Assembly (NCBI GenBank): GCA_951406725.2
Contig: OX597827.1
Coordinates: 60,512,001 to 60,576,000, forward strand
DNA: 64,000 nt
Direction of reading: 5' to 3'
Source of the DNA: Octopus vulgaris
Taxonomy: Eukaryota
A program made the translations under genes and the position numbers. Numbering within the stretch: position 1 is the stretch's first letter; the number at the start of each line of letters is the position of its first letter. Shown piece by piece: positions 1,792 through 64,000 of the stretch. A model generated the notes under the pieces. That model was not told the origin of the DNA. It did not search any database and saw nothing but the letters and a program-made list of their open reading frames with translations.

Positions 1792-3012
1792 TAAATGAAA
1801 TTAAAACTAAAATTCGATTTTATGAACATCAAATACGAAATTTCGCTCCTTTATCACTGACTGAATTGGAGCAACATGAAATGATGTGTTTTACTTTAGG
1901 ATACACTACCTGGTCTGTGAATTGAAACCACGATCTTCCGATTGTGAGCACAATACCTTAAATACGTAGATAAACAACAATGCACTGGAGGTGCTATGAC
2001 AACAACGGTTTTGACGTCTACTTGTGAGGACAGACTTATTTCATTGGCTAAAATTACATAACTTTAACTGCATCCAACTTGTTTTACTATTCATTTTTCG
2101 AAAGAATGAATTCAAATTTTCACCATCAGCATGCAAAACTACATCAGGAGGAAACTCGAAAACAATCCATTGAAAAACCTTCAAGTGGTTGGATAAAAGA
2201 AAAAGATACCTTCTGCCTTTATCTCAAAGTTAGATTCCTCTAATTTATTTACTACATTACATGGTCATTCAAACTGTTAGAAATAACAGCCAACCCCCTC
2301 CTCCCCAAATCACACTCTTTCGTCTTTAAAGAAAAGTCAAGGACACGTTAGATAAAATAATCCTTGGCACTTTATTTACTACACTGTGTGACCATTCAAA
2401 TTGTTGGAAATAACAGCCAAACTCCCTCAAATTACACTGTTTTATATTTAAAAAAGAAGTTGTTTTCCAATAATGAAACAGCAAATCTACCAGAAGATAT
2501 TGAGAACCAATATGCAAATCATTTTCATTCTCACTGTTCCCATGCATATAACGATTTATTTGTCAATATTTTGTTGTGTCTGGGAGAGTCGTTTTCTTTT
2601 TGTGGCTTATAATTTAACACACTCACCGGTAAAATTTCCCCTTATTTCTTATATTCCTAAAATTTTCGTTGCGTCTTGCCGGTGAATGTGTTAAATTATA
2701 ACCACCACCCCCTGCCAAAAAATGACTTCCCCTAGACACAACAGAATATGCTTCAACACACGAACTCACATAAAGAATATTGCAAACCAAATACAAAAAC
2801 AAAATATCGATATTTGTCGAGCAAGTAAGGGAGACAACTCCAGCAGGTATTAAGACGTTCTGGATGGTGTCCCAGTTTTCTTTATCGGTCAATTCAGTCT
2901 TACTACATACATTAAAGCTTGGTGAAAGCAGCCTTCACTTTCTATACATATTTTACATTCGTAATAACTACCTGAGTCATGTTCGTTTTCATCACCATCC
3001 TTTACGTTGTAA

Positions 3013-3760
3013 ACATTACCTGGGCGTTATTGTCGACAGCGATTTGCGTTGGACAAAACACATCGCTAAAATTGCCAAGAGGGCTGAGGGTGTCTTGGCA
3101 TCATTCACCAAGTCCTTTGTGAGCCGCTCTCCGGCTATCTATCTGCGGCTTTATATAGCTATGGTACGACCTCACCTGGAATTTGCATCACCGGTCTGGA
3201 ACCCCTATCTTGCCCAGGATATCAATCGTCTGGAAGCCGTTCAGCGATGTGTAACCAAGAGAATACCCTCCATTAGGCATTTGCCATATTCTGAACGCCT
3301 TACTTCCCTGGGCATGGATACATTGAAACTCCGACGTCTGGCAGCTGACTTGGCAGACACCCATAAAATTATTAATCATCTTACAAACAATAACTCTGAG
3401 CACCTTTTCAAACTCCATCTGTCTAACACCCGTGGACATGTTTACAAAGTCAGAAAACAGCACAGCTCCCATGACTTTCGGAAACATTTTTTCATGCTAA
3501 GAGTTGCTGAAGTATGGAACAAACTGCCCGCATCAGTTGTTAGTTGTCGGAGCACTGCATCCTTCAAAACTTCCATGCTTCATGAGATTCGCCAACACTA
3601 CACCTGATTTTCTCCCCTCCATATACATGCAAGCATGTATCTTACTCATACACTGTTCACTTTCCAGACATTTGTACATTACTGCATATGCTTTATACGC
3701 ACTTTTGACAAGTTGTGGTGCACCTGAGCACTGTATACAATAATTTCATTATTATTATTA
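3013..3760 (+). mobile_element. 5'-truncated CR1-clade LINE (ORF2 C-terminus, 3' UTR, (ATT)n tail)
   Basis: YLGVIVDSDLRW...MVRPHLEFASPVWNPYLAQDINRLEAVQR...YSERL..LG...LRR...TRGH...FF..RV..VWNKLP are typical CR1 RT thumb and C-terminal motifs. Confidence 0.9.
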
Positions 3761-4661
3761 TTCCCTAAAACTGTTTCCTGTTGACGCCATCAACATGAAC
3801 AATATTATTGTTAAAGGCACGAAATTAGGATTTTTGGACGAAGGTGTTAAATGCTCATGTACAAAATATATGTGTAAACACAAGAAGTGCAGTGAGACAT
3901 AAGATAAAGCCACCAAGCGATTAAACCCCTTGGCAATTAGAAAGGGTTCTGTTATTTCCATATACCCTCCAGAAAGGCTCACACTTTTAATAATGGTGTA
4001 TGTTTCTTGAGACCGTATTTTGACAATACAGTCACTACTGCAATCCGTAGAGATGGTACATTTCAGTCGCTCTTAAAGGAATTCTTGTCTGAGAATTAGA
4101 CGTCTAACAGACTGCAACGATATGTACACACTGGTTAACTGCCCCACCAAAAAGGAGGATATTGATGTACGAAATACTCTGCAATAAAAATGGCAGTTCC
4201 TAGATCTGGAGCACCGTCAAAAAATTGCAAATTTGTATTTAGGAATCTGTCCATGCAAATACATCTTAAGAAAAGCTGGAGAAATGTTACATTCACGACC
4301 GGGTTATAGCGTACGCGTAAATCAACGAGGGGAGACAACTCGTTCTGTGAGATTTATCTGCACTTGCTTTGTCGCTGCTGAAATTGAAAGTTATTACATT
4401 TGATGACATTTGCATATAGGGCCCCCTAGGTCCTATATGCGAATGAATATGTGCTGCATAATAGATGCCATTGTGCCTTTCACGTGGTCGAATGCAGTTT
4501 AGTGAGATGTGTTGGAGTTAAAGCAACAATATGCACAATTATAGATGTGATTAATTCAAATCAAGTTATTGGTGAAAAGAAACAAAATCTTGGTTCAATG
4601 ACACATACAAAGGAAATACCACCTTTTCCAGAAGATTAATATTTCTGAGAACAAACAAATA

Positions 4662-5112
4662 TTGGGTTGTCCGGAAAGTTCATGCCGATTTATAGTATCT
4701 TACCTTTCGACTTATTTTAGAACATGGTTGAGTCCATAAAATAGGATTTGACTACACCTCCATTTAGAGCATAGTTTAAGCTATCTTTATGTGGAAGAAG
4801 GTTTATGTTCCTATAACCTGTGTTAATTCTGTAACCCTTTAAAATGGAAGATAAGAAAGTTCATTTTTGGCACTTGATGCTTTGGGAACCAGACAAAAAT
4901 TGCTGCAGGTCGGCTGGGATGTGTTACCCCACCCTCCATATTCACCAGATATTGCTCCTTCGGATTTCCACATATTCAGGTCTCTGCAGAATAGTCTTAA
5001 TGGTAAAAATTTCAATTCCTTGGATGACATAAAAAGATACCTTGATGAATTCTTTGCCATGAAACCACCTCAATCCTGGGAAGAAGGTATTTTCAAGTTA
5101 AAGGAAAGATGT
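4662..5112 (+). mobile_element. Second copy of the same deleted mariner, 3' end lost at a CR1 fragment
   Basis: TA plus TIR at 4660; HPPYSPDIAPSDFHIF motif; same deletion junction as the 46470 copy. Confidence 0.9.
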
Positions 5113-5831
5113 GTAATGTGTATAGGTGGGGATCTCAGGTGTAGAGTTGGCGAATTTCAGGAAGCATGGAGGTTTTCAAAGATGCAATGTCTTGGCAACT
5201 AACAACTGATGCAGGTAGTTTGTTCCATGCTTCATGGGAGTTGTGTTGTTTTCTGACTTTGTAGGCATGCCAACGTGTTAGACAAATAGAGCTCAAAAAG
5301 GTGCTCAAGGTGGTTGTTGGCACGATGGTTAATAATTTTGTGAGTGTTTACCAAGTCAGTTACCAGACATCAGAGCATCAATGTATCTATGCCCAGAGAA
5401 GCAAGGCATTCAGAGTATGGTAGATGCCTGATGGAGGGTATTCGCTCAGTTGCACATCTCTGACAGTTTCTTGGAGGTCAATGTCCAAAGTAAGATAGGG
5501 GTTCCAGACTGGTGATGCAAATTCCAAGTGTGGCCACACCATAGCCATATACAGCCTTAAATAGATAAATATGCTACCTTTGTTCCAATTTATTTTTATA
5601 ATTAAGAAGGATTTAGTAAAATAACTTAATATTAGTGTTTATTAAAATAATTTATTATACTAGCGTTTGCGCGAGGCATCTTGGTCCTTTGTCATTTTAC
5701 CTAAAATGTTCAGTATCCAGAAGTCATTCTTCAGTATTTCATCCCATGTCTTTCTGGGTCTCTCAATTCCACGTGCTCCACCTACTTTCAGAGACTCATT
5801 ACAAAGATCATAACATTTCCAGCCACTGGTA

Positions 5832-11088: not shown

Positions 11089-11768
11089 TATATGCAACGG
11101 GCTTCTTTCAGTTTCTGTCTACCAAATCCACTCACAAGGCTTTGGTCAGCCCGAGGCTATAATAGAAGAAATTTGCCCAAAGTGCCATGCAGTGGAACTG
11201 AACCCGGACCCATGTGGTTGGTAAGCAAGCTACTTACCACACAGCCAATCCTGCACCAGTAATTTTGGGGGAAGTGGGTAAATTGATTGTAGTGACCCCA
11301 GTGTTCAACTGATACTTATTTTATGTACTAAAAAGAGGCTTCACCAAAGAAGGTTCAATAACCAATCAGCCACGTCAAATGATCAAAGTCCAATCAGTTG
11401 CACCCGTGGACATATTTACGAAGTCAGAAAACAGCACAGCTCCCATGACTTTAGGAAACATTTTTTCACGCTGAGAGTTGCTGAAGCATGGAACAAACTG
11501 CCGGCATCGGTTGTTAGTTGTCGGAGCACTGCATCCTTCAAAACTTCCATGCTTTCTGAGATTCACCAACACTACACCTGATTTTCTCCCCTCCATGCAC
11601 ACACAAGCATGTATCTGACTCATACATTGATCGCTTTCCAGCCATTTGTACATTACTGCATACACTTTATACGCACTTTCTGACAAGTTGTGGTGCACCT
11701 GAGCACTGTATACAATAATTTCATTATTATATATTATATTATCTCATTCCAAACAGCAAAATACTTAC

Positions 11769-23500: not shown

Positions 23501-24237
23501 GCTTTGTGAGTGAATTTGAGGTTATTAGAAGACCCTCAAAATGTTTAACCCTAACCCCAAATTTGCAAAGCAAACTGCTTCATCACACAACAATACTTTC
23601 TTATATCCAGTAATTATATATGTTGTAATATATATAGTAATTGCAGCATAAAACAGTTTACTATGGAAAGGCTTACACATTTATTGATAAAAATATTTAC
23701 AGCTAGCACAAATTACATATAATAGTAGTAGTATTAGTATTAATAATAATAATAATAATAGTAGTATTAATAGTAGTAACCATTACACGGCACAGCCAGT
23801 AGTTGTGATCTGTGAAAGGGGAAACAAAAATAAATCAAGAAAAAGAATGTGGTATTAGAAGAGTTTTAACCCTCTGTCTGTCCAAAGCATTTCCATAAGT
23901 TTGTCCTGAACGTCCATGCTTGTTTTTAGATTGTTCATTAGCTTTTGTTTCGTATGTTCTGAGTAGCATAAAACTTTCCTTTTATTTCAAAGGTACCAAG
24001 TTACTAGTGGGGGAGAAAATATCAGGAATAGGTATAATGCTGTATTTTCAGGCATACAAGTTGAATTTTTCTGAGCAAAATTTACAGTCAAAATAAGTAG
24101 GTTGACTTATACACCAAAACGACTTTGAAGGACAAATAGTTCCTTCTGAAATGCAGCAGGATTTGGAATGGTAATGACGATGTTTGAAGGTTTACATTAT
24201 GTATTACATTGACTTGTATGCTAGAAAATATGATATA

Positions 24238-24772: not shown

Positions 24773-27700
24773 TGATGCATGGACGCCAGAGAAATATGTT
24801 CTGTATATTACATGTGATGCACAGGAAAGGCAGAGGGTTAATTGACAGAAAAATTATCAATTAGAATAATCACATCAATTAATTATCATATATCTCAATG
24901 ATGGTTTGAAAGTAATTTAAAAAGAAAACATAGAAAAAAGAAAAAGAAAAATAGGAAAAAATATTAGAAAATACACAACTGAAGTTATTGCATGGGACAC
25001 TGGATTGAAATCAAAATTGCTTTGTGGTATTTGTTCTGGCTCTTTATGCTTTGAGTTCAAATCCTGTTGATGTCAACTTTGCCTTTCATCCTTCTGGAGT
25101 TGATTACCAATTTAGTATTGTGAGTCAATGATATTGACCACCCACCAACTTGATGTTGCAGGCCTTGTGCCTTTCTAGAAACAACTATTAAACACATACG
25201 TGGCTGTGTGGTTAGGAAGCTTGCTTTGTAATCATGTTGCTTCAGGTTCAGTCCCACTGTGTGGCATCTTGGGCGAGTGTCTTAACTATAGCCAAGAGAC
25301 AACTAATGCCTTCTGAGTGAATTTGGTAGACAGAAAGTGTGGAAGCTCATAGTATATGTGTGAGTGTGTGTGTGTGCGTGCGCATGTGTGTGCCCCCTAC
25401 CACTCAACAACTGGTGTTGGTTTGTTTACATCCCCATAATTTAGCAGTTTCAGCAAAAGAAATTGATAGAATAAGAACCTTGACCAAACCCTTCAAGGTG
25501 TTCTAGCATGGTTGCAGTCCAATGACTGAAACCAGTAAAAGATAAAAACATGACAATTAGCAAACAAACAAAAGACAATTTTGTAATTGTAACCAACAGG
25601 CAGACAGATAAGTATATCTGATCTTGAGTCAAGTACATCAACATCAAAAATCAATGGAAATTGTAGTTGTGATCCCTGTGCCGGTGGCACGTAAAAAGCA
25701 CCATCCAAACATGGCCAATGCCAGCGCCACCTCGACTGCCTTCTGTGCTGGTGGCACGTAAAAAGCACCATCCGAACATGGCCAATGCCAGCACCTCCTT
25801 GACTGGCTTCCGTGCTGGTGGCAGTAAAAAGAACCAATCCGATCATGGCCGTTGCCAGCCTCACCTGGCACCTGTACTGGTGGCACGTAAAAAGCACCCA
25901 CTACACTCACGGAGTGGTTGGTGTTAGGAAGGGTATCCAGCTGTAGAAACACTGCCAGATCACACTGGGGCCTGGTGCAGCCTTCTGGCTTCCCAGATCC
26001 CAGTCGAACCGTCCAACCCATGCTAGCATGGAAAATGGATGTTAAACGATGATGATGATGATTCTAAAACAACTTTGAGGCTACACTTCATAAAGGGAAC
26101 ATGCAGATGCAACAATTCAGTGATAAGGGTTATGATTTTTTATGCTAGTTTTGTCTTCTAATCACTTTTGTTACTGTTAGAACAGCTCCCCATGAAAAAC
26201 TAATGTATTTTTTAGCATACTATTTGACATAGTGTAAAGAAACATTGTCAGTTCTTTCCAATTCCTGCTGTATTTCACACAGGATTTTTGGTCCTCCAAA
26301 GTCATCTTGGTGTATAAGTTGACCTATCTGTTTTGGTGATTAATTTTGGTCTGAAAAATTTGACTCGTATGCTAGAAAATACAGTATTTACAATACCATT
26401 TATTATCCAGAATAAATTATCTGGTTGTAAAGATTTTGCAATCAATATCCAAAGAAATAACTAACATACTAGAGACTAGCATGTTCTCTGTAGGAGATAA
26501 TGAAAGTGCCTCTATGTAGTTGCTTAGGCTGCTAGAAATAGCAGCTTAAATTTCTCAAACCTCTTACTGTCTTAAGGAAGGAAAGGACACATTAGATCAG
26601 TGACTCTCAAGTAGAGAACATATGACCCTTAGGTCATATCTCATATATAATTTCGTTCTCTTTTACTCTTTTACTTGTTTCAGTCATTTGACTGCGGACA
26701 TGCTGGAGCACCACCTTTAGTCAAGCAAATCAACCCCAGGACTTATTCTTTGTAAGCCTAGTACTTATTCTATCGGTCTCTTTTGCCGAACCACTAAGTT
26801 ACAGGGATGTAAACACACCAACATCAGTTGCCAAGCGATGTTGGCGGGGACAAACACAGACACACAAACATATACATATGTACGACGGGCTTCTTTCAGT
26901 TTCTGTCTACCAAATCCACTCACAAGGCTTTGGTGGGATGAGGCTATAGTAGACTGAACCTGAAACTATGTGGTTGGTAAGCAAGCTACTTACCACACAG
27001 CCACTCCTGCGCCTAAAATGCTTTCTATAAAACTTTAATTAATTCATGTCTTGTGTTTTATGCAATAGATATTGATTTCTGCCATGTGTGTGCATGCATG
27101 TGTGTGTGTAATAGAAAGAGAAGGCAAGAATTTAAACCATGGAAAACAGATATATCCATTCAAGATTTCATCACTTTTAACTGTGGAAAGCAGTTTCATG
27201 TAACCAAGATATCTTTTGTCGATGAATGCCATGTTTGAAATTATTTTCTATTGAGATATGGCCAAATTTATTGGGACAATGTGACTTGCAGAAAGCACCG
27301 ATTCTATCATTTTTTTGGTGGATATTTTTAACATCATTACTGGAATAAACTTAATTTTTGCAGTTAAAGGGTTCAAAAGAATTCTAAGAATTTTACAAAT
27401 AAAATTTTAAAATAAGGAGAGAGAAAAAAAAAACTAAACTAATTTTTACAATAATGTAGATATAAAAATTTACTAAATAGACAGAAAAAAATAGCATAGT
27501 CCAAATATGGTTTGCACTGATTTTCATAAAATCTACATTAAAAAAGAAAAATTAGAGAAAAAATTTAGTTCATGTTGGAGCATGCAGCTACTGTGTCTGT
27601 GTGTGCATGAGAGAGAGAAAGAGAAAAAAGGAGGGCAGCAAAATAGTTTTCCAAGGACTAAAATAAGAAAAAGAAAAAAAACTTTCTTTAAATGAATAAA

Positions 27701-28002
27701 ACTCTTCTAAATCATGCAGATGGCTGGCGAATCATTTTATGTATAGAAGTTACAAAATTTGATGGCATATAAGATGCATTACTCCCCCCTCCCCCCCCAA
27801 ACAAACTAGAAAACAAAAGCAATACATGGTGAGTTCTATAGGTGACAATGCTCTAATTCAGAGTTTCTCAACCATTTTTTTATCAATGGAATCCTTTGAG
27901 TCCTATCTATTTCACTCAGATGCACCCCCAAAGCCATTTGTTGTTTTAAAATTCCAATAGGCATAGGAGTGGCTGTGTGGTAAGTATAGCCATATAAGTA
28001 TA

Positions 28003-28237: not shown

Positions 28238-28504
28238 AAGTATAGGCGTAGGAATGGCTGTGTCATGCAGAATCTTCCTAAGGACTATGTTAAGGGCATG
28301 CATGTCTATGGAGTCCTCAGCCACTTGCACTCCAAAGATGTATGCAATTCATCAAGTTCTCTTTATTGAACAACCATCCGAGCCACCACATCCGGGTAGC
28401 ATACGTTATCCAAAAGTCAATTTGCATTAAGTCCATTATTTGCTTGGTGCTGCTTTTATGGATAATGGGAGAATGAAAACCTAAGTTGATCTTGGTAAGA
28501 TCTA

Positions 28505-31607: not shown

Positions 31608-31610
<3 letters not shown>

Positions 31611-32310
31611 TGCCGCTAATATATGAAGTCCCTAGTCTTATCGTTAAAGGCATGAAACTAGGTGTGAGTATTTTTCGGTTGATGACTGATGAAGAATTAG
31701 GGTCCTGGTGTCTGTCCTTCTTGTACGTTTTGTAGTATTTAATACATTTTCTATTTATGGAATATCTTAACGCCATGCAACCTGACTTTTGTTAACAGTA
31801 AGTTTGTATACATTTTTTGCAGCTCTTTCCTTCTTTCTCTCTCATCTTATTCCTTTTCTAGCAACTCTACTTCCTCTCTCCCTCTCTCTCGTCTTCTCAC
31901 ACTTAACTGTAGACTTTCTCCCTTTCTTCCCCTGTTCTCTCTCTCTCTGTCCTTCCCTTCTATCTGCTACCAACACGTAAATAGTGGCTGTCTTTCTATC
32001 TTCTGCCTTTTTTGCCACTGGATGCCTAGCGTGCTGGTCAATTTTTCTCTCTTCTCAATTCTGTTATTTATATCCATTTGAGGATCTCTCCAAGGCATTA
32101 ATCCATCATTCTTGAGCTTGGCCCCAAGGCTATATTCATTTGTTGTCATTGTCTATCATTTCAAATTACTGTATGTCCACCCAGTATTATTTTGTTTGCT
32201 CAAACCCTAATACTCCGCAAATCTTGCGGGTGCCACCAATATATGAAGTTCCTAGTCTTATCATTAAAGGCATGAAACTAGGCATAAGTATTTTTCTGTT
32301 GATAACTATA
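31608..32310. mobile_element. Element with ~78-bp diverged direct terminal repeats next to (TA)n, possibly Penelope-like
   Basis: GGTGCC.CTAATATATGAAGT.CCTAGTCTTATC.TTAAAGGCATGAAACTAGG...GTTGAT.ACT at ~31609 and ~32229. Confidence 0.5.
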
Positions 32311-37032: not shown

Positions 37033-40000
37033 AATCTATCTATCTATCTATATCTATATATATAAAGAGAGGGGGGAGAGAGAGGGGGGATGGAGGGAAA
37101 ATCGAAACAAACCTTCAATGGTTTTTATTCGTTAAGTCATCATGGAAGCAATTTAATTCCCATGCACATTGTCAAGGGCAATCTAGGCTGATGAAGCTCA
37201 ACTATCCACCACAAGGTCCAGTCCTTGTTATGATGTGGTAGCTTGCATGCCTCAATGACCCTGAAAGCTATGCCAATGATGCGCAAGCTTCAGGTACGTC
37301 TTTCAGTGCTGGACAAATCAAAGGATAGAGACTAAACTAATATTGAACATCTCTTCCCAAAGGTAAAAATGGATTCACATAGGGCCAACATTCCTACCCA
37401 GATAAAAAACAAAGTTACAAAAGAATTGGTGACAATTCAAAACCACAAAGACCTGATAGGGGAAGGCTATCTCTCAGGGGTAAACATATGATACATCAGG
37501 TCCTGACTTGGAACCCAGAAGGGAGGCGGAAGAGAGAATACCATGAAAATTGCTAGATGTGGGACACTGAAGCTGAGTTTTTTTTTTTTTTAAATAAAGC
37601 AGGGATCCAATTGGAGAAAAGCAGAAAAAACACCCCAGAGTTGAGAACAGTGGAGCAAAGCTGTTGATAGTCAGTGCTCCACAGAGAGTGATAGGGGCCC
37701 AACTATCATAAGAGTGTAGCCAGATGTTGTTGGTAACTCAGAATCAAACCTGATAAGTTGAAGACGACCAGAAACTGAATATGAAATTTTAATTGCAAGT
37801 GATCTGCTAACAAACATGTATTACTGACTTGGTTCCTTATTGTCACCATGAAAGTAGCAGATGTCCACAGTACTTGCAATAACCAATAGCTCATTCAAAT
37901 AGGGTAGAGTGAGCTTCATCATTCATTATTTAATGTCCATTTTTCCATGCTTGCATGGATTGGATGGAATTAGTTGAGGCAGATTATCTGTGGCCAGATG
38001 TTCTTGCTGTCGTCAACTCTGACCTGTTCCCCATGGCCAGACAAGTATTCCATGGAAGATTGGAAGCAAATAACATTATTCCTATGATGGTGATAGTCAT
38101 TTACAAACATCATGTGATGTTTAGACAAGGTCACACAAACACACACATACACAGCAGGCTTCTTTCAGTTTCTTTCTGCCAAATTGATAAGATTTTGATC
38201 AGTTAGGGGCTAAAGTAGAAAACACTTGCCCAAAGAGCTGTGCAGTGGGACTGAACCTAAGATCACATGGTTAGGAAACTACCTTGTTAACTACACACCC
38301 ACATCCACACAATGATAAAGTTAAATAAATATTCAATTTTTGTTGTATCTTGGGAGGGCTATTATTCCAATTATAAACACACACACACACAGGTTCTATT
38401 TCACTTCTTTTAGTCAATTGGTTAGCTTTTAACTAACTAACTAACCAATTGTTTGATTAATCATTCAGTTAATCAATCCATTTATCAAAATCCTTTTGTT
38501 GCCATTCATGACCTCATCAATGACGTGCCCATTCTATTCCAAGCCAGCATCTAATCACTAGCATAATGACTCACCAAGGTACAACAAAATTTGTTTCAGT
38601 GCACTAGTTTACGTCAAGAATTTCGCAAACCAAATACAAAAACAATAACATCCAATTATTTTGACGAAATAAGAGCCATATGTTTTGAATGACAGGTAAC
38701 AGTATGTGAAGATAAATACAAAAATACACCGTTACACTAACTCATAATATTTCTCACAAATTCTCCCCATCACCTCTTTTACTCTTTTACTTGTTTCAGT
38801 CAGTTGACTGCGGCCATGCTGGAGCACCACCTTTAGTCGAGCAACTCGACCCCGGGACTTATTCTTTGTAAGCCCAGTACTTATTCTATAGGTCTCTTTT
38901 GCCGAACCACTAAGTGACGGGGACATTAAACACACCAGCATCGGTTGTCAAGCAATGCTTGGGGGACAAACATAGATACACAAACATACACGCACACACA
39001 TATATATATATATATATATACATATATACGGCGGGCTTCTTTCAGTTTCCTTCTACCAAATCCACTCACAAGGTTTTGGTCGGCCCCGAGGCAATAGTAG
39101 AAGACATTTGCCCAAGGTGCCACGCAGTGGGACTGAACCCGGAACCATGTGGTTGGTAAGCAAGCTACTTATCACACAGCCATTCCTGCGCCTATACATT
39201 TCAGTCAATCAATGGTCATGCCTAGCTAGTAAGAAAGCTGTCTCCCACCCCTAGCACCCAACAGAAAATTATTAATTTCCTTTGTTGTTTATCCTCCTCC
39301 TCCTCTTCTTTTACATTCGTTTTTCCATACTGGCATGGGTTGAACTGTTTGACCAGAGCTGGCAAGCTGGAGGGCTGCACCAAGTTCTAGTCTGATTTGA
39401 CTGGGTTTCTAAAGCTGGATGCCCTTCCTAATGCCAACCACTTTACAGTGTGTGCTGGGTACTTTTAACATGGCACTGGCATGAGTGCATTTTATGTGAA
39501 ACTGGCACACAACTCTTGCAAGCCAATCCTTTCAACCAAGAAGAGTGGCCTTAATATTTCTTATTTCTTTATTGCCCACAAGGGGCTACACACAGAGGGG
39601 ACAAATGAGGACAGACAAATGGATTAAGTCAATTACGTCGACCCCAGTGCATAACTGGTACTTATTTAATCAACCCCAAAAGGATGAAAGGCAAAGTCGA
39701 CCTTGGCAGAATTTGAACTCAGAACTTAGTGGCAGACAAAATACCTATTTCTTTACTGCTCACAAGGGGCTACACACAGAGGGGACAAACAAGGACAGAC
39801 AAAAAGATTAAGTAGATTATATCGACCCCAGTGTGTAACTGGTACTTATTTAATCGACTCCGAAAGGATGAAAGGCTAAGGTGACCTCGGCGGAATTTGA
39901 ACTCAGAACGTAGTGGCAGACAAAATACAGCTAAGCATTTCGCCCGGCATGCTAACATTTCTGCTAGCTTGCTTTAATATTTCTGCTGTGGCGGACAGGT

Positions 40001-46469: not shown

Positions 46470-47035
46470 TTGGGTTGTCTGGAAAGTTTGTGCTGATTTT
46501 TAAAGGAAAGAAAAAGGTCAATAACTACTTGCCATTACATTTTTAATCAATCAAATATGAACCATTTTGTTGCACAATGCATCTCTATATTTCCTTTAAC
46601 TTCAAAATACCCTCTTCCCAGAATTGAGGTGGTTTCATAGCAAAGAATTCATCAAGGTATCTTTTTACGTCATCCAAGGAATTGAAATTTTTACCATTAA
46701 GACTATTCTGCAGAGACCTGAATAAGTGGAAATCCGAAGGAGCAATATCTGGTGAATATGGAGGGTGGGGTAACACATCCCAGCCGAGCTGCAGCAATTT
46801 TTGTCTGGTTCCCAAATCATAAAGTGCTGAAAATGAACTTCTTTATCTTCCATTTTAAAGGGTTACAGAATTAACACAGGTTATAGGAACATAAACCTTC
46901 TTCCACGAAAAGATAGCTTAAACTGTGCTCTAAATGGAGGTGTAGTCAAATCCTATTTTATGGACTCCACCATGTTCTAAAATAAGTCGAAAGGTAAGCT
47001 ACTATAAATCGGCACAAACTTTCCGGACAACTCAA
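46470..47035 (-). mobile_element. Internally deleted mariner transposon with TIRs and TA TSD
   Basis: ~30-bp TIRs TTGGGTTGTC.GGAAAGTT.GTGC.GATTT flanked by TA. N-terminal MEDKEVHFQH is joined directly to the C-terminal HPPYSPDIAPSDFHLF region. Confidence 0.92.
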
Positions 47036-49292
47036 TACATCACTTTAAAATGAGATGGTTGTGTCTAGAATACTTTAGATCGTCGGTATCTTTATTGTAC
47101 ATCCATCAGTTGACTTGATATCAAGCATATTTGAGCTCACCTGTATCATATTAAATTAGTAGAGGACAAATACAGTATGGGTTATGAATAAATAAATATA
47201 CAGACCTATGTCTGTATGTATCTAGTTTTGCTTTGAAATTTAGTTCTCAGGAGGATAATTTTAATACCTCGGGATAAAGATCAAACTCGGTGCCTTCCTT
47301 GTTATTTTATAATTCATCAAAATCTCCTTACCTCTCTCTATCTTCAAGCAGATCTTCATGAATTATAAATTAACAATGAAACCAGTTAGTTTAATCTTTT
47401 GTCCCAAGTTGTCAAAAAGTCTCCATTGAGACCTATTTTCACAGCATGACTGAATATATAGAGACAAGTTCTATACTTATTTATTAACCACATTTTTTCT
47501 CTGGTGATGGGATGGTTTGAGGTAAAGTTATCATAATTTTCTCTCTCTTTCTCTCTCTCTCTCTCTCTGAGACATTAGATGCCACACACACACACTAATA
47601 TGTGTGTGTGTGTTTAATAGCTAATGTCAGTGAGAGGTAAAGTGACAGAAGAAAGCCAACACTACCTCTCTGAGGTGCTAACTATCAAGTGTACTTTTAT
47701 ATACTCATTTTATATACTCATTTTAATGTCCTCTTTTCCATGCTTGCAAGGGTATTGCAGATTGAATTTGTTGAGGTGGATTTTATATGGTTGGATGCCC
47801 CCACCGTTACCAAAACCCACCTGTTTTCAAGTAAGGTGATATTTCCCAACAACCAGATGTGTTTTCACACATTGGAAACGAAAGTCACTGCTTACATTAT
47901 GCTAATATACATTTACAACTATCAAGCAATACCGAGGCAAAGAAAGAGTAAGACACACACACAAAGCACACAAAATCATACACACACACACACACACAAA
48001 AAAAAACACAAACACACACACACACACACAAAAACACACACACACACACACACAAACCCCAAAACACACACAAACACATACACACATACAAACACATACA
48101 CACACACACACTGGATGGACTTCTTTCATTTTCCACCTACCAAATCCACTCACAATGCTTCAGTTGACCTGGAGCCTTAAAAGACACTTATCCAAGACAC
48201 CACACAGTGGGATTGAAAACAATACCATGTGGCTGGGAAGCAAACTTCTTAACCACACAGCTATGCCTGTTCCTGTGCTGACATATATGTATAAATAATT
48301 CAAAAGTGGAATAAATTGGTTTGACATGAGGAAGCAGAAGAAGAGAAAAAAACGAAAACATTTTAGATAGTTCTCTTCACTGCGTGTGTCTAGTACTTCC
48401 CTTCTCTACTTACATCTCACCACATCTGTGATAAGTCAAATCTTTACACGTGGTTCACACATGCGTTCAGTCACATGTATGACACTGTACATGTGGCTGT
48501 CTGTTTGATAGCTTATGTCACATGCAACTTAGTCCTCCCACATGATATTAACACAAAAATGAAATGCTCACCCAAAAACTACCTTTATATATTAAAACGT
48601 AAGTAGATCGACCCACAAGGGATTTCGTTTATATGATCTTACTCGCCCAGACACTCAGATTAAAAAAGGTGTATGTGTGTGTGTGTGTGTAGGAGGAGAC
48701 TCTGTTAGACGTGGTCTATCTTTTGACCTTTGTAGATCTATGTCTAAGTGGCAGTAAGTAGCGAGCAGTCATGTGACTGACATCATACTTAACTTAGTCT
48801 CGTTTGCTAATAATAGAAATGTGAAACTTTCCAAACTAACCTCACCGTCTTTTGTCTTTTACTGGTTTGAGTCATTGGACTGCACCCATTGAAAGGTTTG
48901 CTTGAAAGAATCAATCCCAGTATTGATTTATCAATGTTTTTTGCTGAACCACTGAATTACAGGGGTGCAAAGAAGTCAACACTGCTTGTCAAGCGAGGAT
49001 GGGGGACAAAAACATACACATAATATATATGCTTATAAAGGCAGTGAGCTGGCAGAATCATTAGCAATGCCAGGTGAAATGCTTAGCGGCATTCAAATTC
49101 GGCTGAGGCTGACTTTGCCATTCATCGTTTCGAGGTTGATAAAATAAGTACCAGTTGAACATTAGGGCCGATACAATAGACTTGACCCCTCTCACAAACC
49201 TGCTAGCTTTGTGCAAAAATCTGAAACACACTCAAACACATTATATATATGTATATATATATATATATATGAATATATATATATGTATATGT

Positions 49293-49586
49293 GGAGGCAA
49301 ATGGCCTAGTGGTTAGAGCAGTTGACTCGCAGTCGAGGGATCGTGGGTTCGAATCTCAGACCAGGCGATGTATGCATTTATGAGCGAAACACCTAAGCTC
49401 CACGTGGTTCTGGCAGAAGGTAGTGGTGAACTTCTGACTCTTTCACCACAACCTTCTCTCACTCTTTCCTCCAGCATCTTGCAGCTCATCTGCAACGGAC
49501 CGGCATCCCGTCCAAGTGGGAAACCTATATGCCAAGAAAATCGGGAAACTGGCCCTTATGAGCCAGGCATGGCTCAAGAAGGAACA
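49293..49586 (+). mobile_element. SINE-C: tRNA-Arg-derived SINE; copies at 51180-51473(+) and 62489-62787(-)
   Basis: GGAGGCAAATGGCCTAGTGGTTAGAGCAG..GACTCGCAG...GGGTTCGAATCTC (A box, TCG anticodon-like loop, B box) followed by a ~220-bp non-tRNA body. Related heads at ~33318, 43985, 46050 and 52213. Confidence 0.8.
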
Positions 49587-49598
49587 AATAATATATAT

Positions 49599-50735
49599 CA
49601 TCATCATCATCATCATCATTTAGCGTCCGTTTTCCATGCTAGCATGGGTTGGACGGTTCAACTGGGGTCTGGGGAGCCCGAAGGCTGCACCAGGCCAGTC
49701 AGACTGGCAGTGTTTCTACAGCTGGATGCCCTTCCTAACGCCAACCACTCCGAGAGTGTAGTGGGTGATTTTATGTGCCGCCGACACAGGTGCCAGACGA
49801 GGCTGGCGAACGGCCACGCTCGGATGGTGTTTTTATGTGCCACCGACACAGGTGCCAGACGAGGCTGGCAGACGGCCACGCTCGGATGGTGTTTTTATGT
49901 GCCACCGACACAGGTGCCAGATGAGGCTGGCGGACGGCCACGATCGGATGGTGTTTGTTACGTCCCCAAAGCACGGAGGCCAGTCTATGCGGTACTGGCT
50001 ACGGCCACGTTCGGATGATTTTCTTGTGTGCCACCGGCACTGGTACCACAAAGATACAAATTCCATTGATGTTCATCTATTTTGATTTGTTTTGATTTGA
50101 TTTGATTTTCACTTGCCTCAACAGGTCTTCACAAGTGTCACAAGAAGGAAGGTATGCACAGGTGGACTGACTACGTTCCAGGTAGGGGCCACGGGTTATG
50201 GCCTGACTAGTCTTGCCGGGTCTTCGGATGGTGTTTTTATGTGCCACCGACACAGGTGCCAGATGAGGCTGGCGAACGGCCACGATCGGATGGTGTTTGT
50301 TGCGTGCCCACAGCACGGAGGCCAGTCGATAGCGGTACTGGCTACGGCCACGTTCGGATGGTTTTCTTGTGTGCCACTGGCACTGGTACCACAAGATACA
50401 AATTCCATTGATGTTCATCTATTTTGATTTGATTTGATTTGATTTTCACTTGCCTCAACAGGTCTTCACAGGTCTTCACAAGTGTCACAAGAAGGAAGGA
50501 AGGTATGCACAGGTGGACTGACTACGTCCCAAGTAGGGGCCATGGGTTATGGCCTGACTAGTCTTGCCGGGTCTTCGGTTGGTGTTTTTATGTGCCACCG
50601 ACACAGGTGCCAGATGAGGCTGGCGGACGGCCACGATCGGATGGTGTTTGTTATGTGCCCACATCACAGAGGCCAGTCGATGCGGTACTGGCTACGGCCA
50701 CGTTCGGATGGTTTTCTTGTGTGCCACCGGTACTG
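49599..50735 (-). mobile_element. (ATG)n-tailed retroposon (probably an RTE-type LINE 3' region) with nested tandem repeats
   Basis: (CAT)n on the plus strand at 49599; shared 3' block GGTTGGC.TTAGGAAGGGCATCCAGCTGTAGAAAC; ~60-bp GTGCC/GGCAC-rich units inside ~350-bp units. Confidence 0.8.
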
Positions 50736-51473
50736 CACCGTCTTTTGTCTTTTACTGGTTTGAGTCATTGGACTGCACCCATTGAAAGGTTTGCTTGAAA
50801 GAATCAATCCCAGTATTGATTTATCAATGTTTTTTGCTGAACCACTGAATTACAGGGGTGCAAAGAAGTCAACACTGCTTGTCAAGCGAGGATGGGGGAC
50901 AAAAACATACACATAATATATATGCTTATAAAGGCAGTGAGCTGGCAGAATCATTAGCAATGCCAGGTGAAATGCTTAGCGGCATTCAAATTCGGCTGAG
51001 GCTGACTTTGCCATTCATCGTTTCGAGGTTGATAAAATAAGTACCAGTTGAACATTAGGGCCGATACAATAGACTTGACCCCTCTCACAAACCTGCTAGC
51101 TTTGTGCAAAAATCTGAAACACACTCAAACACATTATATATATGTATATATATATATGAATATATATATATGTATATGTGGAGGCAAATGGCCTAGTGGT
51201 TAGAGCAGTGGACTCGCAGTCGAGGGATCGTGGGTTCGAATCTCAGACCAGGCGATGTATGCATTTATGAGCGAAACACCTAAGCTCCACGTGGTTCTGG
51301 CAGAAGGTAGTGGTGAACTTCTGACTCTTTCACCACAACCTTCTCTCACTCTTTCCTCCAGCATCTTGCAGCTCATCTGCAACGGACCGGCATCCCGTCC
51401 AAGTGGGAAACCTATATGCCAAGAAAATCGGGAAACTGGCCCTTATGAGCCAGGCATGGCTCAAGAAGGAACA

Positions 51474-51508
<35 letters not shown>

Positions 51509-52552
51509 TTTCAGACATTGACCCCAATGTTCTACAAAAAGCTTTTTTCAGTTTCCATTTACCAAAACCATACCCAAGGATTTGGTGGGCCTGAATCTAT
51601 AGTAGAAGACACTTGCTCAAGGTGCGACACAGTGTGACTGAACCCAATACCATGTGGTTGCGAATCAAGCCTCTTACCACACAACCACATGTCAAAACAA
51701 AAAAAAATGTAATAACCCACATGGTGCTTGGTAATAAGATCACTTTCCTCATTTCATGCTCAAATTAAAAAACAACAACAATAGTAAAGAGTTTTAATTA
51801 CATCGCTGCAATGCAGCCTATCTTTTGACCTTTATGTCACTAAGGTGTTTGTATATACACAAGCATATGACATAACCATTGTTAAAAATGTAACCAAGGT
51901 TACATGAAATGATGTTTTCAGTGGAGGAAAAGGGGTCATATTTTTTAATCTTTTATTTGTCCCATTCATTGGTCTCTGGCCATGCTGGGGTACTACCTTG
52001 AAGTGTTGGTCAAACAAATTGACCCCAGTACTTATATCTTCTTTAAGCCTGGTTCTTATTCTTACAGCTGTTTTTTTTTTGCCAAACCACTAAGTTATGG
52101 GAATGTAAACAAACCAACACTGGTTGTGAATCAGTGGTGGGGGATAAACACAAAGACACATATACACACACACACACATACATACATATATGTGTGTGTG
52201 TGTGTGTGTGAAGACACATGGCTTAGTGGTTAGAGCATCGGGCTCACAATCGTAAGGTAGTGAGTTTGGTCTCCGGACTGAGCTGTGTTGGGTTCTTGAG
52301 CAAGACACTTTATTTCGTGTTGCTCCAGTTCACTCAGCTGTAGAAATGAATTGCAACGTCACTGATGCCAAGCTGTACCAGCCTTTGCCTTTCCCTTGGA
52401 TACCATTGGTGGCATTGAGACGGGAGGCTGGTATACATGGATGACTGGTGTTCTTCCTTAAACAACCTTACCCAAACTTATGCCTCAGAGGGAAATTTTC
52501 TAGGTTCAACCCCATGGTCATTCATGACCAAAAGGGGTCTTCATGCTTTTAA

Positions 52553-57958: not shown

Positions 57959-58359
57959 AGCTTTAAACAACGATTAGACACAGCTCCTTTCTCTCTCTCA
58001 TTTAAGCCTATTCATACACATAACCACACACACACACACACACACTCAATCATATACAGACTCAAAACAGACTAAACTACTTCAGGTCTTAGTAATAACA
58101 TAGGCTGCTATGAAGCTTGCATGCACACACACACACACATCAATTCACTTGAGGTTCTTGTAATAAACATACGCTGTTATTGTATGCTCTCTGTACGCAA
58201 TTTATATTATGGTTTTAGAAAACACACACACACACGCACCTTGCCAATAAATATAAAATATAAAACAAACCACAGAAACTAATTAACTAGAAGCATATAC
58301 ATGTCTTTATAATCAGCAATTGATACATTATTAATTTTATTAATAACAAGAACAATAAC

Positions 58360-58790
58360 AACTTGCTAGAAATAACAGCCAAATAACCCTCAAATCACAT
58401 CCTATTATCAACAGCAATGACAACTTGCTAGAAACAAGAGTCAAATTGCCCTCAGATCACACCTTGTTAACAACAGCAACAATAACAACTTGCTAGAAAC
58501 AGCAATGAAACCACCCTCAGATCACATCCTCTAAACAACAGCAATAATAACTTGCTGGAAATAACAGCCAAATAACCCTCAAATCACACCCTATTATCAA
58601 CAGCAAATAAAAACTTGCTAGAAACAAGAGTCAAATTGCCCTCAGATCACACCTTGTTAACAACAGCAATGATAACAACTTGCTAGAAACAACAATGAAA
58701 CCGCCCTCAGATCACATCCTCTAAACAACAGCAATAATAACTTGCTAGAAATAACAGCCAAATCATCCTCAGATCACAGCGTACTATCTT
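58360..58790 (+). repeat. Minisatellite of ~62-65-bp units with a 3-unit (~190-bp) higher-order repeat
   Basis: AACTTGCT.GAAA starts at about 58360, 58422, 58487, 58549, 58612, 58677 and 58739; variant order A-B-C-A-B-C-A. Confidence 0.9.
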
Positions 58791-59335
58791 AAGATGGAGT
58801 GTTCATAGCCAGAAAAACCATTGATCATAGGCCTGTTCAATTAGAGCTGATCTGGGACCACACAGCGAGGAAAACCAAAGTAAATTGACAACAGGTTTAA
58901 ATAAGAACTAATTTGATAAGATTATTGAAACCGGATTTTTTGAGCAGCAGCAGTAGTAGTGGTGGTGGTGGTGGTGGTGATGGTACAGTGTTGTAGTAAT
59001 GGTAGTAGTGATTGTGTGTGTATAATAGTGGTGACAGTTGCAAAAGTAGTTTGGTGATAGTAGTTGTAGTAGTGGTGGTGGTGGTGTGTTGTAGCAGCGG
59101 TGTAAAATAATGGTAGTGTGTGGTGTGGTTGCATGTCATCGTAATGGTGGCAGTGGTTGTTCAGTGTTATAGAAGTAGTGATAGTTGCAGAAATTAGTTA
59201 GTGGTAGTTGTGACAGTAGTAGTAGCAGCAGCAGCTTTGGTGGTGGTGGTGGTGGTGATGAGTACAGCCCCTCTATTAGGCTTCCATACAGTTTCCATCA
59301 ACTCAACTTTACTCACAAGACTTAGGTTAATTTGA

Positions 59336-59985
59336 GGTCGTGGCCTATGCCAGGGGTGTAACCAGCCCACTTATGCGTACCTTTTCCTTCTTTGGACACT
59401 GAACTCTGCTTGCGTAGACCTATTGAGGCAAGTGTAATTGAAATCAAATTCGATGACTGGCATCCGTGCTAGCGGGGTGCAAAGAGCACCATACGAGTGT
59501 GATCGTTGACAGAGCGGCTAACCGGCTTCCGTGCCAGTGACACATAAAAGGTACCATTTGAGTGTGATCATTACCAGCGTCGCCTTACTGGCACTTGTGC
59601 CCTGTGCTAGTAGGCTGCTAAAAGCACCATCCGAGCGTGATCGTTGCTAGAGTGGCTAACCAGCTTCTGTGCCGGTGGCACATAAAAGGCACCATTCGAG
59701 TGTGATCATTACCAGCGTCACCTTACTGGCGCCTGTGCCGGTGGCATGTGTAAAAAGATTTGAGCGAGGTCATTGCCAGTACCGCCTGACTGGCCCACAT
59801 GCCAGTGGCACATAAAAGCACCCACTACACTCTCGGAGTGGTTGGCATTAGGAAGGGCATCCAGCTGTAGAAACTCTACCAGATCAAGATTGGAGTCTGG
59901 TGCAGCCATCTGGTTTGCCAGCCCTCTGTCAAATCGCTCAACCCATGCTAGCATGGAAGGCAGACATTAAACAATGATGATGAGG
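59336..59985 (+). mobile_element. Same (ATG)n-tailed retroposon family; shorter 5'-truncated copies at ~21393-21590, ~25622-26062 and ~56570-56803 (all +)
   Basis: Common 3' end CCAACCCATGCTAGCATGGAA...TAAACGATGATGATG with a variable number of ~60-bp units upstream. Confidence 0.8.
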
Positions 59986-60250
59986 AGGAGGGGGACTAGA
60001 AACTTGATCAAGGTACTGTGCAGTGGGATTGAACCTGAAGCTAAGGGATTGCAAAGCAAATATCGTAAACTGCACAGACATGTTTGTCACTAATATAATT
60101 TGAGATTTTGATGATGTTATTATTTATGTTCAGAATGACTTGTCTTCCACAGGTACAGGCTTGTCCTTTCAGGTGCTGGTACCACATAAAAAGCACCTAT
60201 GTCAGTGCTGAGTAAACAGCACCCTTGCTGGTGACATGTATATATATATA

Positions 60251-61700: not shown

Positions 61701-64000
61701 AGTGACAGATTTGTACACAGAAGTAAATCGGGGGGAGGAGGAAGTTGCTCGTATTTAGATTTGAAACCTTGATACATTTCAGAAACATTAATTATTTAAA
61801 TGAAAAGTTCTTCTAGAAAGATAACGGATTCATCCACCTGTCAGAAATTTGCCCCGTGTGGGTGATAACAAAATCATATCAGTGGTATGCCACCCTGGTG
61901 GCCAACAGGGATTACATAAAACATCACAGCCAGAAATATGAGTTTTACACCCCGTGTGAAGATTCTCTTAACCAAAATATAAACAGCTTTACAGCTGATC
62001 TGAAAGAAGATAAAGCTGAGATGTATGATAGACCCATACTCTTTTACTTGTTTCAGTCATTTGACTGCGGCCATGCTGGAGCACCACCTTTTAATCGAGC
62101 AACTTGACCCCGGGACTTATTCTTTTGTAAGCCCAGTACTTATTTTATCGGTCTCTTTTGCCGAACCGCTAAGTAACAGGGACATAAACACACCAGCATT
62201 GATTGTCAAGCAATGCTAGGGGGAAAATACAGACACACAAACACACACACGCATATATATATATATACATATATACGACGGACTTCTTTCAGTTTCCGTC
62301 TACCAAATCCACTCACAAGGCTTTGGTCGGCCCGAGGCTATAGTAGAAGACACTTGCCCAAAGTGCCACGCAGTGGGACTGAACCCGGAACCATGTGGTT
62401 GGTAAACAAGCTACTTACCACACAGCCACTCCTGCGCCATAATGTAGTTTATTTATAAATTTATGGTTTCATATTTTATTCCAGTATGTTTGTTCCTTCT
62501 TGAGCCATGTCTGGCTCATAGGGCCAGTTTGCCGGTTTCCATGGCATATAGGTTCCCCACCTGGATGGGACGCCGGTCCGTCGCAGGTGAGCTGCAAGAT
62601 ACAGGAGGAAAGAGTGAGAGAAAGTTGTGGCGAAAGAGTCAGCAGAGGTTTGCCATTACCTTCTGCCGGAGCCACGTGGAGCTTAGGTGTTTTCGCTCAT
62701 AAACACACACATCACCCAGTCTGAGATTCGAACCCATGATCCCTCGACCATGAGTCTGCTGCTCTAACCACTAGGCCATGTACTTCCACTTATTCCAGTA
62801 TACTAACACAATATTGTATTACATTCATAAAATCCTACATTCTCAGCAAAACCACTTTACTATATCTTTCAGTAACTGTATAATGAAATATAGTTTGTGG
62901 AAAAACAAACTTAGAATATTTGTAAAGGTGGGGTACATCTTAAGTAGAGTGCACCTTATACACTGGCACTTACGATATATCTAATTAGATTTTTTTTTTA
63001 TGCTGACTACATTAAAGGTAAACACTAATTTAGTTTTCTTAACCACAGTAATATAAGCTTGTAGTTGTTTAGCTACAGGTCAGCTTAGGTCAAACAGGTT
63101 TTTACAGACAGTTTATCTTGGACACAGACAGTTTACATTGGACAATGCTAAAAGAAGTGAAGGAAACATCATAATAAACTATAAGATTGGATTTGAGAAA
63201 TATTTGGCTGCTGTTTTTAGTAGGTTGAATAACCATATAGAGGCTCCTTCATTGGCTCAGTGTTTTAATATGTTGCACAGATATAAGGAAATCTGAAAAG
63301 AAAAGGGAATAAGAAGGAAGGAATATAATATTCAAACCTTTGAAACTGCAAGTATGCTTTAACACAGGGATTCTCAACCATTTTATGCCTTTGGCCCCTT
63401 TAATTCCTGTTTTACTCAAATGGAGTGCCACAGTCATTCACTATACATACCATTGTTGTTTAACTTCCACTTTCCATGCTGGCATGGGTTGGACGGTTTG
63501 ACATGGAGCAGACTCCAGTTGTCTGTTGTGGTATGGTTTCTGTGATTGGATTCCCTTCCCAACGCCAAATATATCTTACTGCATTTTTGTAATTAAATAT
63601 TATTAGGAATTGTATAAAATGCATAACCAGCTTATTGCACATAAATTTTAGCAAAATCTTACATGGACCCCTAAGGGGGTCATGGGTTAGTGGACCCCAC
63701 TTGAGAACTACTGCTTTAACAGGTGCAGTTTTGTTTGATTACATCCCTGGAAGCTGCAGATATAGGTGAGCATATAATTTTGTGCTTATGATTGAAAATA
63801 ATGATATTTTTGCCAATTAGCAAACCATAAACACAATACTGTGTAGCTTTTGTATCTTCCAGGGATACTATCAATCAAAATTGTACCCTCTGAACTATAT
63901 TCTCATCACAAGGTCGTCCTTGCTGTATGGCAGATTGTGTACCTTAAAAAAAGGTACAAAAAAAAAAAAAAGCGGCAAGCTGGTAGAAATGTTAGCACAC

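Follow-up and report, generated by a model that had tools for sequence, protein, structure and literature searches.

In Octopus vulgaris contig OX597827.1, a repeat-family element lies between two nearly identical copies of about 750 bp of host DNA, and the question raised by this locus is whether insertion of the element produced the duplication. A first-pass annotation of the window (the whole 64,000-nucleotide stretch that was analysed) proposed that it did, through a recent target-primed insertion with a distant second nick.

The repeat and its junctions

Self-BLAST and local alignment both recover the near-perfect direct repeat that was noted then: 48843-49598 (756 bp) and 50736-51485 (750 bp) have sharp ends and differ by one substitution (T at 49323, G at 51210) and by a 6-bp gap within an internal (TA)n run. 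The 1137 bp between the copies (49599-50735) consist of repeat-family sequence throughout, the element occupying the minus strand, and both copies abut it to the base; the geometry of a target-site duplication (TSD), also claimed by the annotation, is exact at either junction. The block and its surroundings comprise the following features.

48843..49598, no strand: block copy 1, 756 bp of host DNA flanking the tail (3') of the element and composed of (TA)n and fragments of older SINEs
48848..49023, no strand: half of an old, abundant SINE of about 400 bp, in copy 1 (twin at 50741-50916)
49287..49588, plus strand: complete SINE of about 300 bp with A/B-box-like motifs, in copy 1 (twin at 51174-51475)
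50736..51485, no strand: block copy 2, 750 bp of host DNA flanking the element's 5' end
51478..51505, no strand: (TA)14 run, putative site of the first nick
51541..51688, no strand: other half of the old SINE of about 400 bp, just right of copy 2 and in register

Among the 685 self matches within the 64-kb window (at least 100 bp, non-overlapping and not of low complexity), the block repeat has the highest similarity (99.1%, the runner-up reaching 95.6%) and is therefore not due to chance. The 3' boundary is uncertain by 2 nt because the last AT of copy 1 (49597-49598) is common to the tail. At the 5' junction (50735/50736), the insert is flush with copy 2, and neither microhomology nor added bases are present, a pattern also expected from a mis-join. 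The second site (48842/48843) likewise lacks microhomology and is not TA-like. The tail had been described as an (ATG)n array abutting a (TA)n run; an (ATG)7 tail is indeed present, but at 49599 it adjoins only (AT)4 (49591-49598), and the long 28-nt TA run lies at and past the end of copy 2 (51478-51505).

As the annotation stated, an entire SINE was duplicated, namely, the complete 300-bp tRNA-like element, which is present in both copies and matches 62489-62793 at 86%, along with other SINE material, including half of the old SINE of about 400 bp. The single substitution falls within the complete SINE, and copy 1 probably holds the derived base. The other half of the old SINE follows copy 2 in register, and the adjacency of the block to the right flank therefore predates the insertion; when the insert and one block copy are removed, the locus becomes a coherent stretch of old nested SINEs.

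Anatomy, relatives and age of the insert

The insert consists of 2.5 head-to-tail units of 342-351 bp each, plus 62-bp subrepeats.

49599..50735, minus strand: non-autonomous retroposon, 1137 bp, internally multimeric, with no Pfam match in the three frames scanned
49599..49619, minus strand: (ATG)7 3' tail, reading (CAT)7 on the plus strand, with a 2-nt AT overlap with the target at 49597-49598
49624..49656, minus strand: 3'-terminal stem-loop, whose inner 5-bp stem is preserved in 8-9 of the 9 family copies aligned
49764..49956, minus strand: 62-bp subrepeats, 3.1 copies, the number differing in two related O. vulgaris copies (translations)
49882..50223, minus strand: unit U3, 342 bp, part of the internal head-to-tail array
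50224..50574, minus strand: unit U2, 351 bp, with 10 substitutions relative to U3 in 336 columns
50575..50735, minus strand: partial unit U1, 161 bp, its end flush against copy 2

The earlier label of a 5'-truncated element holds to the extent that the insert stops in mid-unit at its 5' side; it is a multimer of 2.5 units rather than a simple truncated element. Pfam detected no coding capacity of an autonomous LINE (reverse transcriptase, RT, and endonuclease) in any of the three insert frames and no family in seven translated frames, and the proteins matched by the insert in searches are the repeat itself, spuriously translated. The sense strand of the element, whose true 5' end may be missing, shows neither an A/B-box motif nor a tRNA prediction. 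Rfam gave no match at the gathering score across the window; an E-value scan of 48800-51600 returned 20 sub-threshold matches, mostly miRNA models on (TA)n runs and none in the insert, which thus has no ribozyme support. Folding of the starts of U2 and U3 yielded z values of 0.29 and -0.17, and no structure is claimed for them. Changes in the terminal stem-loop among the family copies are one-sided only, and because no pair is compensatory, the conservation of the stem may be that of sequence.

The family is represented in the window by 12 loci, the focal insert and 11 other fragments, all of which include or approach the 3' end and have varying 5' cut points. The common 3' end, variable 5' cuts, microsatellite tail and conserved 3' hairpin, together with the abutting target repeats, are hallmarks of non-LTR integration via target-primed reverse transcription (TPRT). 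A TA-rich target is common to other family copies: TA-rich DNA follows the tail in 4 of the 11 fragments compared with a background of 3.9% (p about 6e-4, with fragment ends placed by hand and the threshold picked post hoc). The broader suggestion, that the family generally duplicates host DNA, is not supported in the window, where none of the 11 other fragments has a long flanking repeat; all these fragments belong to older subfamilies, and the young subfamily is represented by the focal insert only. The best non-focal 30-mer flank matches (26/30 and 24/30) lie in dispersed SINE and microsatellite sequence and do not extend. An anchored short-TSD search at 6 of the 11 copies gave candidates of 5-13 bp that are weak against its random-flank null; the top null score (12k) comes from a match lying within the element itself.

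The 3' end of the insert shows no amino-acid-changing difference and one 1-nt deletion over 46 codons relative to P0001, the translation of an Octopus vulgaris gene model, and the element therefore looks young; four other local copies compared with P0001 require 4-11 substitutions and 1-4 indels. Against another O. vulgaris translation, P0012, the next subrepeat shows a difference at 1 of 20 residues. These matches agree with the earlier claim of a recent insertion. The observed/expected CpG ratio is 0.75 in the insert and 0.39 in the window. The internal units differ by 3.0-5.6%, compared with 0.13% between the flanks (Fisher p=6e-5), such that the multimer must have aged at its source locus. 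A protein search with the frame crossing the 5' junction matched only P0001, which does not extend across it. No second copy of the unit junction was found: a phmmer search with the frame across the U3/U2 junction gave eight matches, two of them octopus repeat translations without the junction, and the sense-strand frame over the same junction gave no candidate. The other six phmmer matches, long proteins with Ig-type repeats aligned by chance over about 30 residues, were dropped. That the 3' end is conserved while the units have diverged (0 of 46 versus 11 of 144 codons, p=0.07) is a contrast that is only suggestive. A leave-one-out comparison with the local copies (20 of 182 columns) would put the insert at the same age as the others; it was discounted, since most of these differences also occur in P0001 and P0012. 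The insertion event probably dates back no more than about 0.2 My (95% range 0.005-1.0 My).

Origin of the duplication

With moderate confidence, we propose that target-primed insertion took place in a (TA)n run, the cDNA being joined to a DNA end some 750 bp away with duplication of the interval, and, with similar confidence, that this was a recent germ-line TPRT event with an aberrant 5' join. The endonuclease of a partner LINE, probably one of the RTE clade, would have nicked the plus strand within the (TA)n run, as suggested by the TA-rich target and the AT overlap. The partner RT would then have recognised the 3' hairpin and copied the RNA from its (AUG)n tail over 1137 nt, stopping in mid-unit, a step modelled on LINE/SINE biology and compatible with the observed anatomy. 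The cDNA end would next have been joined without microhomology to the DNA end at 48842/48843, and fill-in or replication would have produced the arrangement of block, element and block. The ends in TPRT are usually 7-20 bp apart.

Second-strand cutting and 5' joining of non-LTR elements are still poorly understood. The distant end might have come from a second-strand nick with unwinding or from capture of a sister-chromatid or replication-fork break, as proposed for L1-bridged tandem duplications; the two routes give identical products. Thus, from the original proposal of a distant second nick, we retain the end about 750 bp away but not the nick itself: we lean towards a host break because 750 bp cannot melt passively and because the second site is not TA-like. 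Against an insertion-made duplication count the divergence of the internal units relative to the flanks, the lack of long flanking repeats at the 11 other family fragments and the fact that the 5' junction is known from this assembly sequence alone; 5' junctions without microhomology are a minority pattern among truncated LINE inserts.

An assembly artefact, which we consider unlikely, would involve a heterozygous, ordinary short-TSD insertion with mis-joined haplotype paths, the filled path (flank, block and part of the element) being connected to the empty path starting 750 bp upstream (block and flank). Such a join would yield exactly the observed geometry, including the flush 3' junction, and would explain both why a repetitively built element ends in mid-unit and why microhomology is absent; the SNP and the microsatellite length difference fit allelic differences, and a young element may well be polymorphic. 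However, indirect evidence weighs against it: the 64 kb contain no N or gap, other parts of the window include resolved low-complexity tracts of 300-420 bp, and no other repeat above 96% is found among the 685 matches, so that nothing indicates a contig join; the 2.6-kb structure is, in addition, much shorter than a long read.

Quite unlikely, in our assessment, is an earlier short-TSD insertion beside which the block was duplicated afterwards, either by non-homologous crossover of a filled with an empty allele or by templated copying that was break-induced, started from 48843 and rejoined by way of (TA)n or the old short TSD. Each internal unit carries 3-5 private substitutions over the 161 columns that the units share, most of them G/C to A/T changes of the kind seen in genomic decay. 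If even 0.5-1% of that divergence had accumulated at the present site, true TSD copies should differ at 7.5-15 positions, compared with the one seen. Conversely, the 3' end of the element has almost no private change relative to P0001 and P0012, and 6 of the 12 private unit changes cluster within 16 columns; moreover, templated copying would call for two switches and, to end exactly at the tail, would need to traverse the longer (TA)n runs at 49242-49284.

It is highly improbable that an unrelated tandem duplication came first and the element then landed precisely at its junction, where (AT)4 would be a plausible target, or that copy 2 is a local retrocopy of read-through RNA ending at an old SINE tail (the left block end lies within about 5 nt of an old SINE's end), given that the former needs a base-exact hit without a TSD of its own among about 1500 bp having longer TA runs, and the latter a reinsertion within 1.1 kb exactly at the element edge, with an old SINE piece only 70-86% like its relatives. 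A copy 2 made by RT is unsupported because the probably derived base sits in copy 1, and the block's make-up, a local host mosaic with ancestral neighbours, led us to discard a Penelope-type pseudo-LTR or a transduced flank.

The germ-line insertion with an aberrant 5' join that we favour was probably a one-off accident without function, and a single locus establishes neither rate nor mechanism. If verified by reads, it would indicate that such events occur in the animal germ line, beyond cultured or tumour cells and the dual-endonuclease Dualens; duplications of this size would also copy whole SINEs without retrotransposition, inflating the counts of apparently young copies. It is distinctly doubtful that germ-line insertions of the young octopus subfamily, mobilised by an RTE-type LINE whose only endonuclease is of the APE type, duplicate hundreds of host bases as a matter of routine. 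If they did, this would be an animal counterpart of the giant TSDs of Dualen that needs no second endonuclease, and small tandem duplications would have a hidden source, overlooked because TSD surveys were capped at 30 or 49 bp. Since the duplicated DNA is made up of old repeats and shows no hint of function, the value of the case lies in prompting a genome-wide survey.

Comparison with known systems

In RTE-clade LINEs and their non-autonomous derivatives, the 3' end is short, carries a trinucleotide tail, reported as (TGA)n, and overlaps the target by 1-2 nt; their TSDs are mostly 7-15 bp (PMC5786205, PMC2887409, PMC6007223). RTE is active in Octopus (RTE-2_OV, PMC9115989), and polymorphic RTE insertions have been reported there. 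The octopus element resembles RTE derivatives in its trinucleotide tail and AT target overlap, features that are not diagnostic because they are common to L2 and CR1, and differs in its 750-756-bp repeat. A motif search of published supplements found no match. Longer TSDs are known for C. elegans RTE-1.

R9 of the rotifer Adineta is autonomous and rDNA site-specific, with a 126-bp TSD or stagger. Both R9 and the octopus element are animal non-LTR elements with TSDs far beyond 30 bp, but the octopus family is dispersed, its repeat is six-fold longer, and its target consists of nested SINEs, with no Rfam match at the gathering score in the window to suggest rDNA.

In cancer, a read-supported somatic tandem duplication of 22.6 Mb is bridged by L1, with a model in which the cDNA captures a sister-chromatid break (PMC7058536). 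In the octopus locus, too, a short retro-insert marks the point where two directly repeated tandem copies meet, although the block is only 0.75 kb and is known from assembly sequence alone. Extremely long TSDs of 5'-truncated L1 in HeLa cells (Gilbert et al., cited through PMC2912911 and PMC4245944) are, in these secondary accounts, ascribed to host repair of an aborted intermediate and regarded as HeLa peculiarities. The truncated insert and radical alteration of the target site are shared, whereas L1 has a poly(A) tail and was followed in cell culture, and the octopus case is genomic, apparently germ-line, and has a microsatellite tail.

Of comparable size is the case of Dualen-4b_cRei of Chlamydomonas reinhardtii, for which long reads revealed de novo flanking duplications with a median of 900 bp; Dualens are autonomous, carry RLE and APE endonucleases and generate duplications of more than 50 bp at more than half of their insertions (bioRxiv 10.1101/2022.05.23.493040). 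The octopus insert similarly lies between duplications of hundreds of bp, but is a non-autonomous animal element with a putative partner LINE and accounts for one case among 12 family loci in the window, the 11 fragments without such a duplication including none of the young subfamily. The novelty implied by the annotation was thus overstated, duplications of this size beside non-LTR insertions having already been published: by analogy with these cases, a large insertion-made duplication is rare but known for other retrotransposons, and the octopus locus would not represent a new kind of event.

The duplicated block and its host origin

The locus consists of three adjoining segments, namely a retroposon between two copies of a block of host sequence:

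48843-49598: copy 1 of the duplicated block (756 bp)
49599-50735, minus strand: retroposon insert (1137 bp)
50736-51485: copy 2 of the duplicated block (750 bp)

Alignment of the two copies confirmed the repeat boundaries of the first-pass annotation exactly and recovered both of the differences it had listed, one substitution (T at 49323, G at 51210) and a gap of 6 bp within a (TA)n run inside the block. At 99.1%, this pair ranks first in similarity among 685 self matches of the window (at least 100 bp, overlapping and low-complexity matches removed), ahead of a runner-up at 95.6%; the window contains no N bases and ~46% of it is interspersed repeat. The flanking duplication is a real feature of the sequence and probably of the genome, too; the best reading of the locus is an unusually long duplication linked to the insertion. 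Its left boundary (48843-48848) falls within about 5 nt of the point where an old SINE ends.

The duplicated block is local host DNA. Portions of this abundant old SINE and of a second SINE lie in it, together with a (TA)n run and one complete SINE of 300 bp bearing A/B-box-like motifs (SINE labels here are working names, not database names), in accord with the earlier observation that a whole SINE and SINE fragments were copied. Positions 11-211 of a reference copy of the old SINE are inside the block and positions 254-400 are directly to the right of copy 2 (51542-51688); therefore, the ancestral locus had a single block copy followed by the right flank. Removal of the insert and one copy leaves a coherent locus. 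Given the ancestral adjacency of block and right flank, a transduced passenger and, on the same grounds, an element-derived terminal repeat were rejected.

The insert, its family and other repeats

As described previously, a minus-strand element with an (ATG)n tail lies between the repeats: the insert terminates in (ATG)7, preceded by a stem-loop. Its final 102 nt form a better fold than do 199 of 200 shuffled sequences (z -2.6); in 8-9 of the 9 aligned copies the inner 5-bp stem is retained, without compensatory changes. The family is represented in the window by 11 further fragments with a common 3' end and different 5' cut points. The first-pass annotation overlooked the 62-bp subrepeats of the insert and its organization into 2.5 units, 342-351 bp long and arranged head to tail, in which an identical junction occurs twice; the units differ pairwise in 10/336, 8/161 and 9/161 columns. 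Neither Pfam families (three frames scanned) nor Rfam models matched the insert, and no A/B-box motif was found on its sense strand. The insert is a non-autonomous retroposon of the LINE/SINE type, and its partner LINE likely belongs to the RTE clade because the trinucleotide tail and short (here, 2-nt) target overlap resemble RTE in the available text of PMC2887409 and PMC6007223, and RTE activity in Octopus is reported in the accessible parts of PMC13282606 and PMC9115989. The insert motifs had no match in the available portions of the supplements (one each of PMC5786205 and PMC13282606, and 8 files of PMC9115989).

Named protein matches to the repeat translations are hypothetical proteins, six from Octopus vulgaris (P0012 among them) and one from O. 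bimaculoides, which makes an octopus the probable host. Seven public Octopus 'hypothetical proteins' (P0001-P0006 and P0012) are whole or partial translations of this non-coding repeat and are therefore probably spurious gene models.

A LINE-like family whose 3' end differs from that of the insert family contributes several 3' fragments (1542-1792, 2774-3761 and 11401-11742; 93-96% identical); a frame in one of these (2774-3607), with no Pfam match, resembles a reverse-transcriptase C-terminus. A 451-bp inverted pair (4660-5110 and 46587-47037; 95% complementary) overlaps a frame (4855-5202), again with no Pfam match, that resembles a mariner transposase tail. A 79-bp direct repeat (31609-31687 and 32229-32307; 88.6%, 541 bp apart) adjoins a long (TA)n run and may be an incomplete terminal repeat from a Penelope-like remnant. 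Tandem organization is seen in a dimer of a 184-bp SINE piece (39562-39928; 88% matches) and in a minisatellite with nested periods of 62, 127 and 190 bp (58338-58788; 93% at the 190-bp level).

Age, junctions and origin of the duplication

The flanks diverge by one substitution in 750 columns, or 0.13% (95% range 0.003-0.74%); with a rate derived from the available part of the octopus repeat paper (distance 0.09 for 25 My; PMC13282606), the duplication would be ~0.19 My old (0.005-1.0 My). Both differences between the copies could be consensus errors. If the flanks are a target-site duplication (TSD), the element must be equally young. Compared with local family copies, the insert appeared old, but closer relatives of it are seen in the translations of two O. 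vulgaris gene models. The 3' 46 codons of the insert show no amino-acid-changing substitution relative to P0001, with one 1-nt deletion (4-11 substitutions are needed for four other local copies), and its next subrepeat differs from P0012 in 1 of 20 residues; by this near-identity of translations, the insert is assigned to a young subfamily. Divergence among the units is far above that between the flanks (p=6e-5), with mostly G/C-to-A/T substitutions, and even 0.5% in-place unit change predicts 7.5 flank differences; under the TSD reading, the unit changes would have come from a multimeric source element. No further copy of the unit junction turned up in the protein sets, where repeats of this kind are sparsely represented.

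The tail at the 3' junction comes after (AT)4, with the final AT common to both, and the copy 2 counterpart continues into (TA)14. TA-rich DNA follows the tail in 4 of 11 other family fragments, compared to 3.9% of window positions, with fragment ends placed by hand and a post hoc threshold. At the 5' junction, the insert halts mid-unit and joins copy 2 without microhomology or added bases, as assessed with its two other units as the template continuation; this second target site is not TA-like.

The most likely reading, which we favour with moderate confidence, is an insertion whose cDNA was joined to a DNA end ~750 bp away: a nick within (TA)n would let the tail prime reverse transcription, which would end after 1137 nt, followed by direct joining of the cDNA to the distant end and fill-in. 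The target-primed insertion proposed earlier is thus retained; its distant second nick would yield a product identical to that of sister-chromatid break capture, towards which we lean by inference. A haplotype-join artefact would account for all junction features and turn both copy differences into alleles; the signs against it are only indirect (the window is gap-free, its low-complexity tracts are resolved and it holds no further near-identical duplication). We consider such a join unlikely. Duplication of the block beside an element already in place would explain the age contrast between units and flanks but demands more coincidences, and appears quite doubtful. Duplication before insertion, or a local retrocopy, is highly improbable.

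No flanking repeat spanning junction to junction within 3 kb was detected at any of the 11 other fragments in the window, and short TSD candidates at 6 other copies are weak, so the earlier proposal of family-wide host duplication is not upheld: on this evidence, long duplication is not a family trait. Because these 11 fragments all come from older subfamilies, the young subfamily is sampled once; that it makes such duplications often seems improbable. An older member (59335-59990), nested in an abundant SINE, has a flanking repeat of at most 5 bp. A 22-bp direct repeat (27957-27978 and 28242-28263; 91%) around an unrelated 263-bp SINE is an ordinary short TSD that serves as a local control. 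Another 22-bp repeat (24209-24230 and 26360-26381; 95%, 2.1 kb apart) encloses SINEs and a family copy without abutting them and is probably unrelated.

Comparison with known systems

TSD-like duplications of this size are already on record elsewhere, and long TSDs have been attributed to RTE-1 of C. elegans. As noted in the first-pass annotation, the duplication is far outside the norm, given that typical TSDs are 7-15 bp for RTE and 7-18 bp for L1 in the available text of PMC6007223. No report of a comparable cephalopod event was found in a literature search with most subscription papers outside its coverage, and nothing on long TSDs in the accessible part of PMC12016303. Two genomic TSD surveys, in the sections available, were limited to 30 and 49 bp (PMC2912911, PMC6007223), so that long-duplication events are under-counted. 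According to the accessible portions of the respective sources, more than half of the de novo Dualen-4b insertions in Chlamydomonas have flanking duplications >50 bp, with a median of 900 bp (bioRxiv 10.1101/2022.05.23.493040); the R9 TSD is 126 bp (as cited in bioRxiv 10.1101/2022.05.23.493040, PMC6895275); 5'-truncated L1 in HeLa cells show extremely long TSDs (Gilbert et al. as cited in PMC2912911, PMC4245944); and in a tumour, a single L1 bridges a tandem duplication that spans 22.6 Mb (PMC7058536). The octopus locus departs from the Dualen kind in family frequency within the window, but would work in the same way as both the Dualen-type giant TSD and the L1-bridged duplication.
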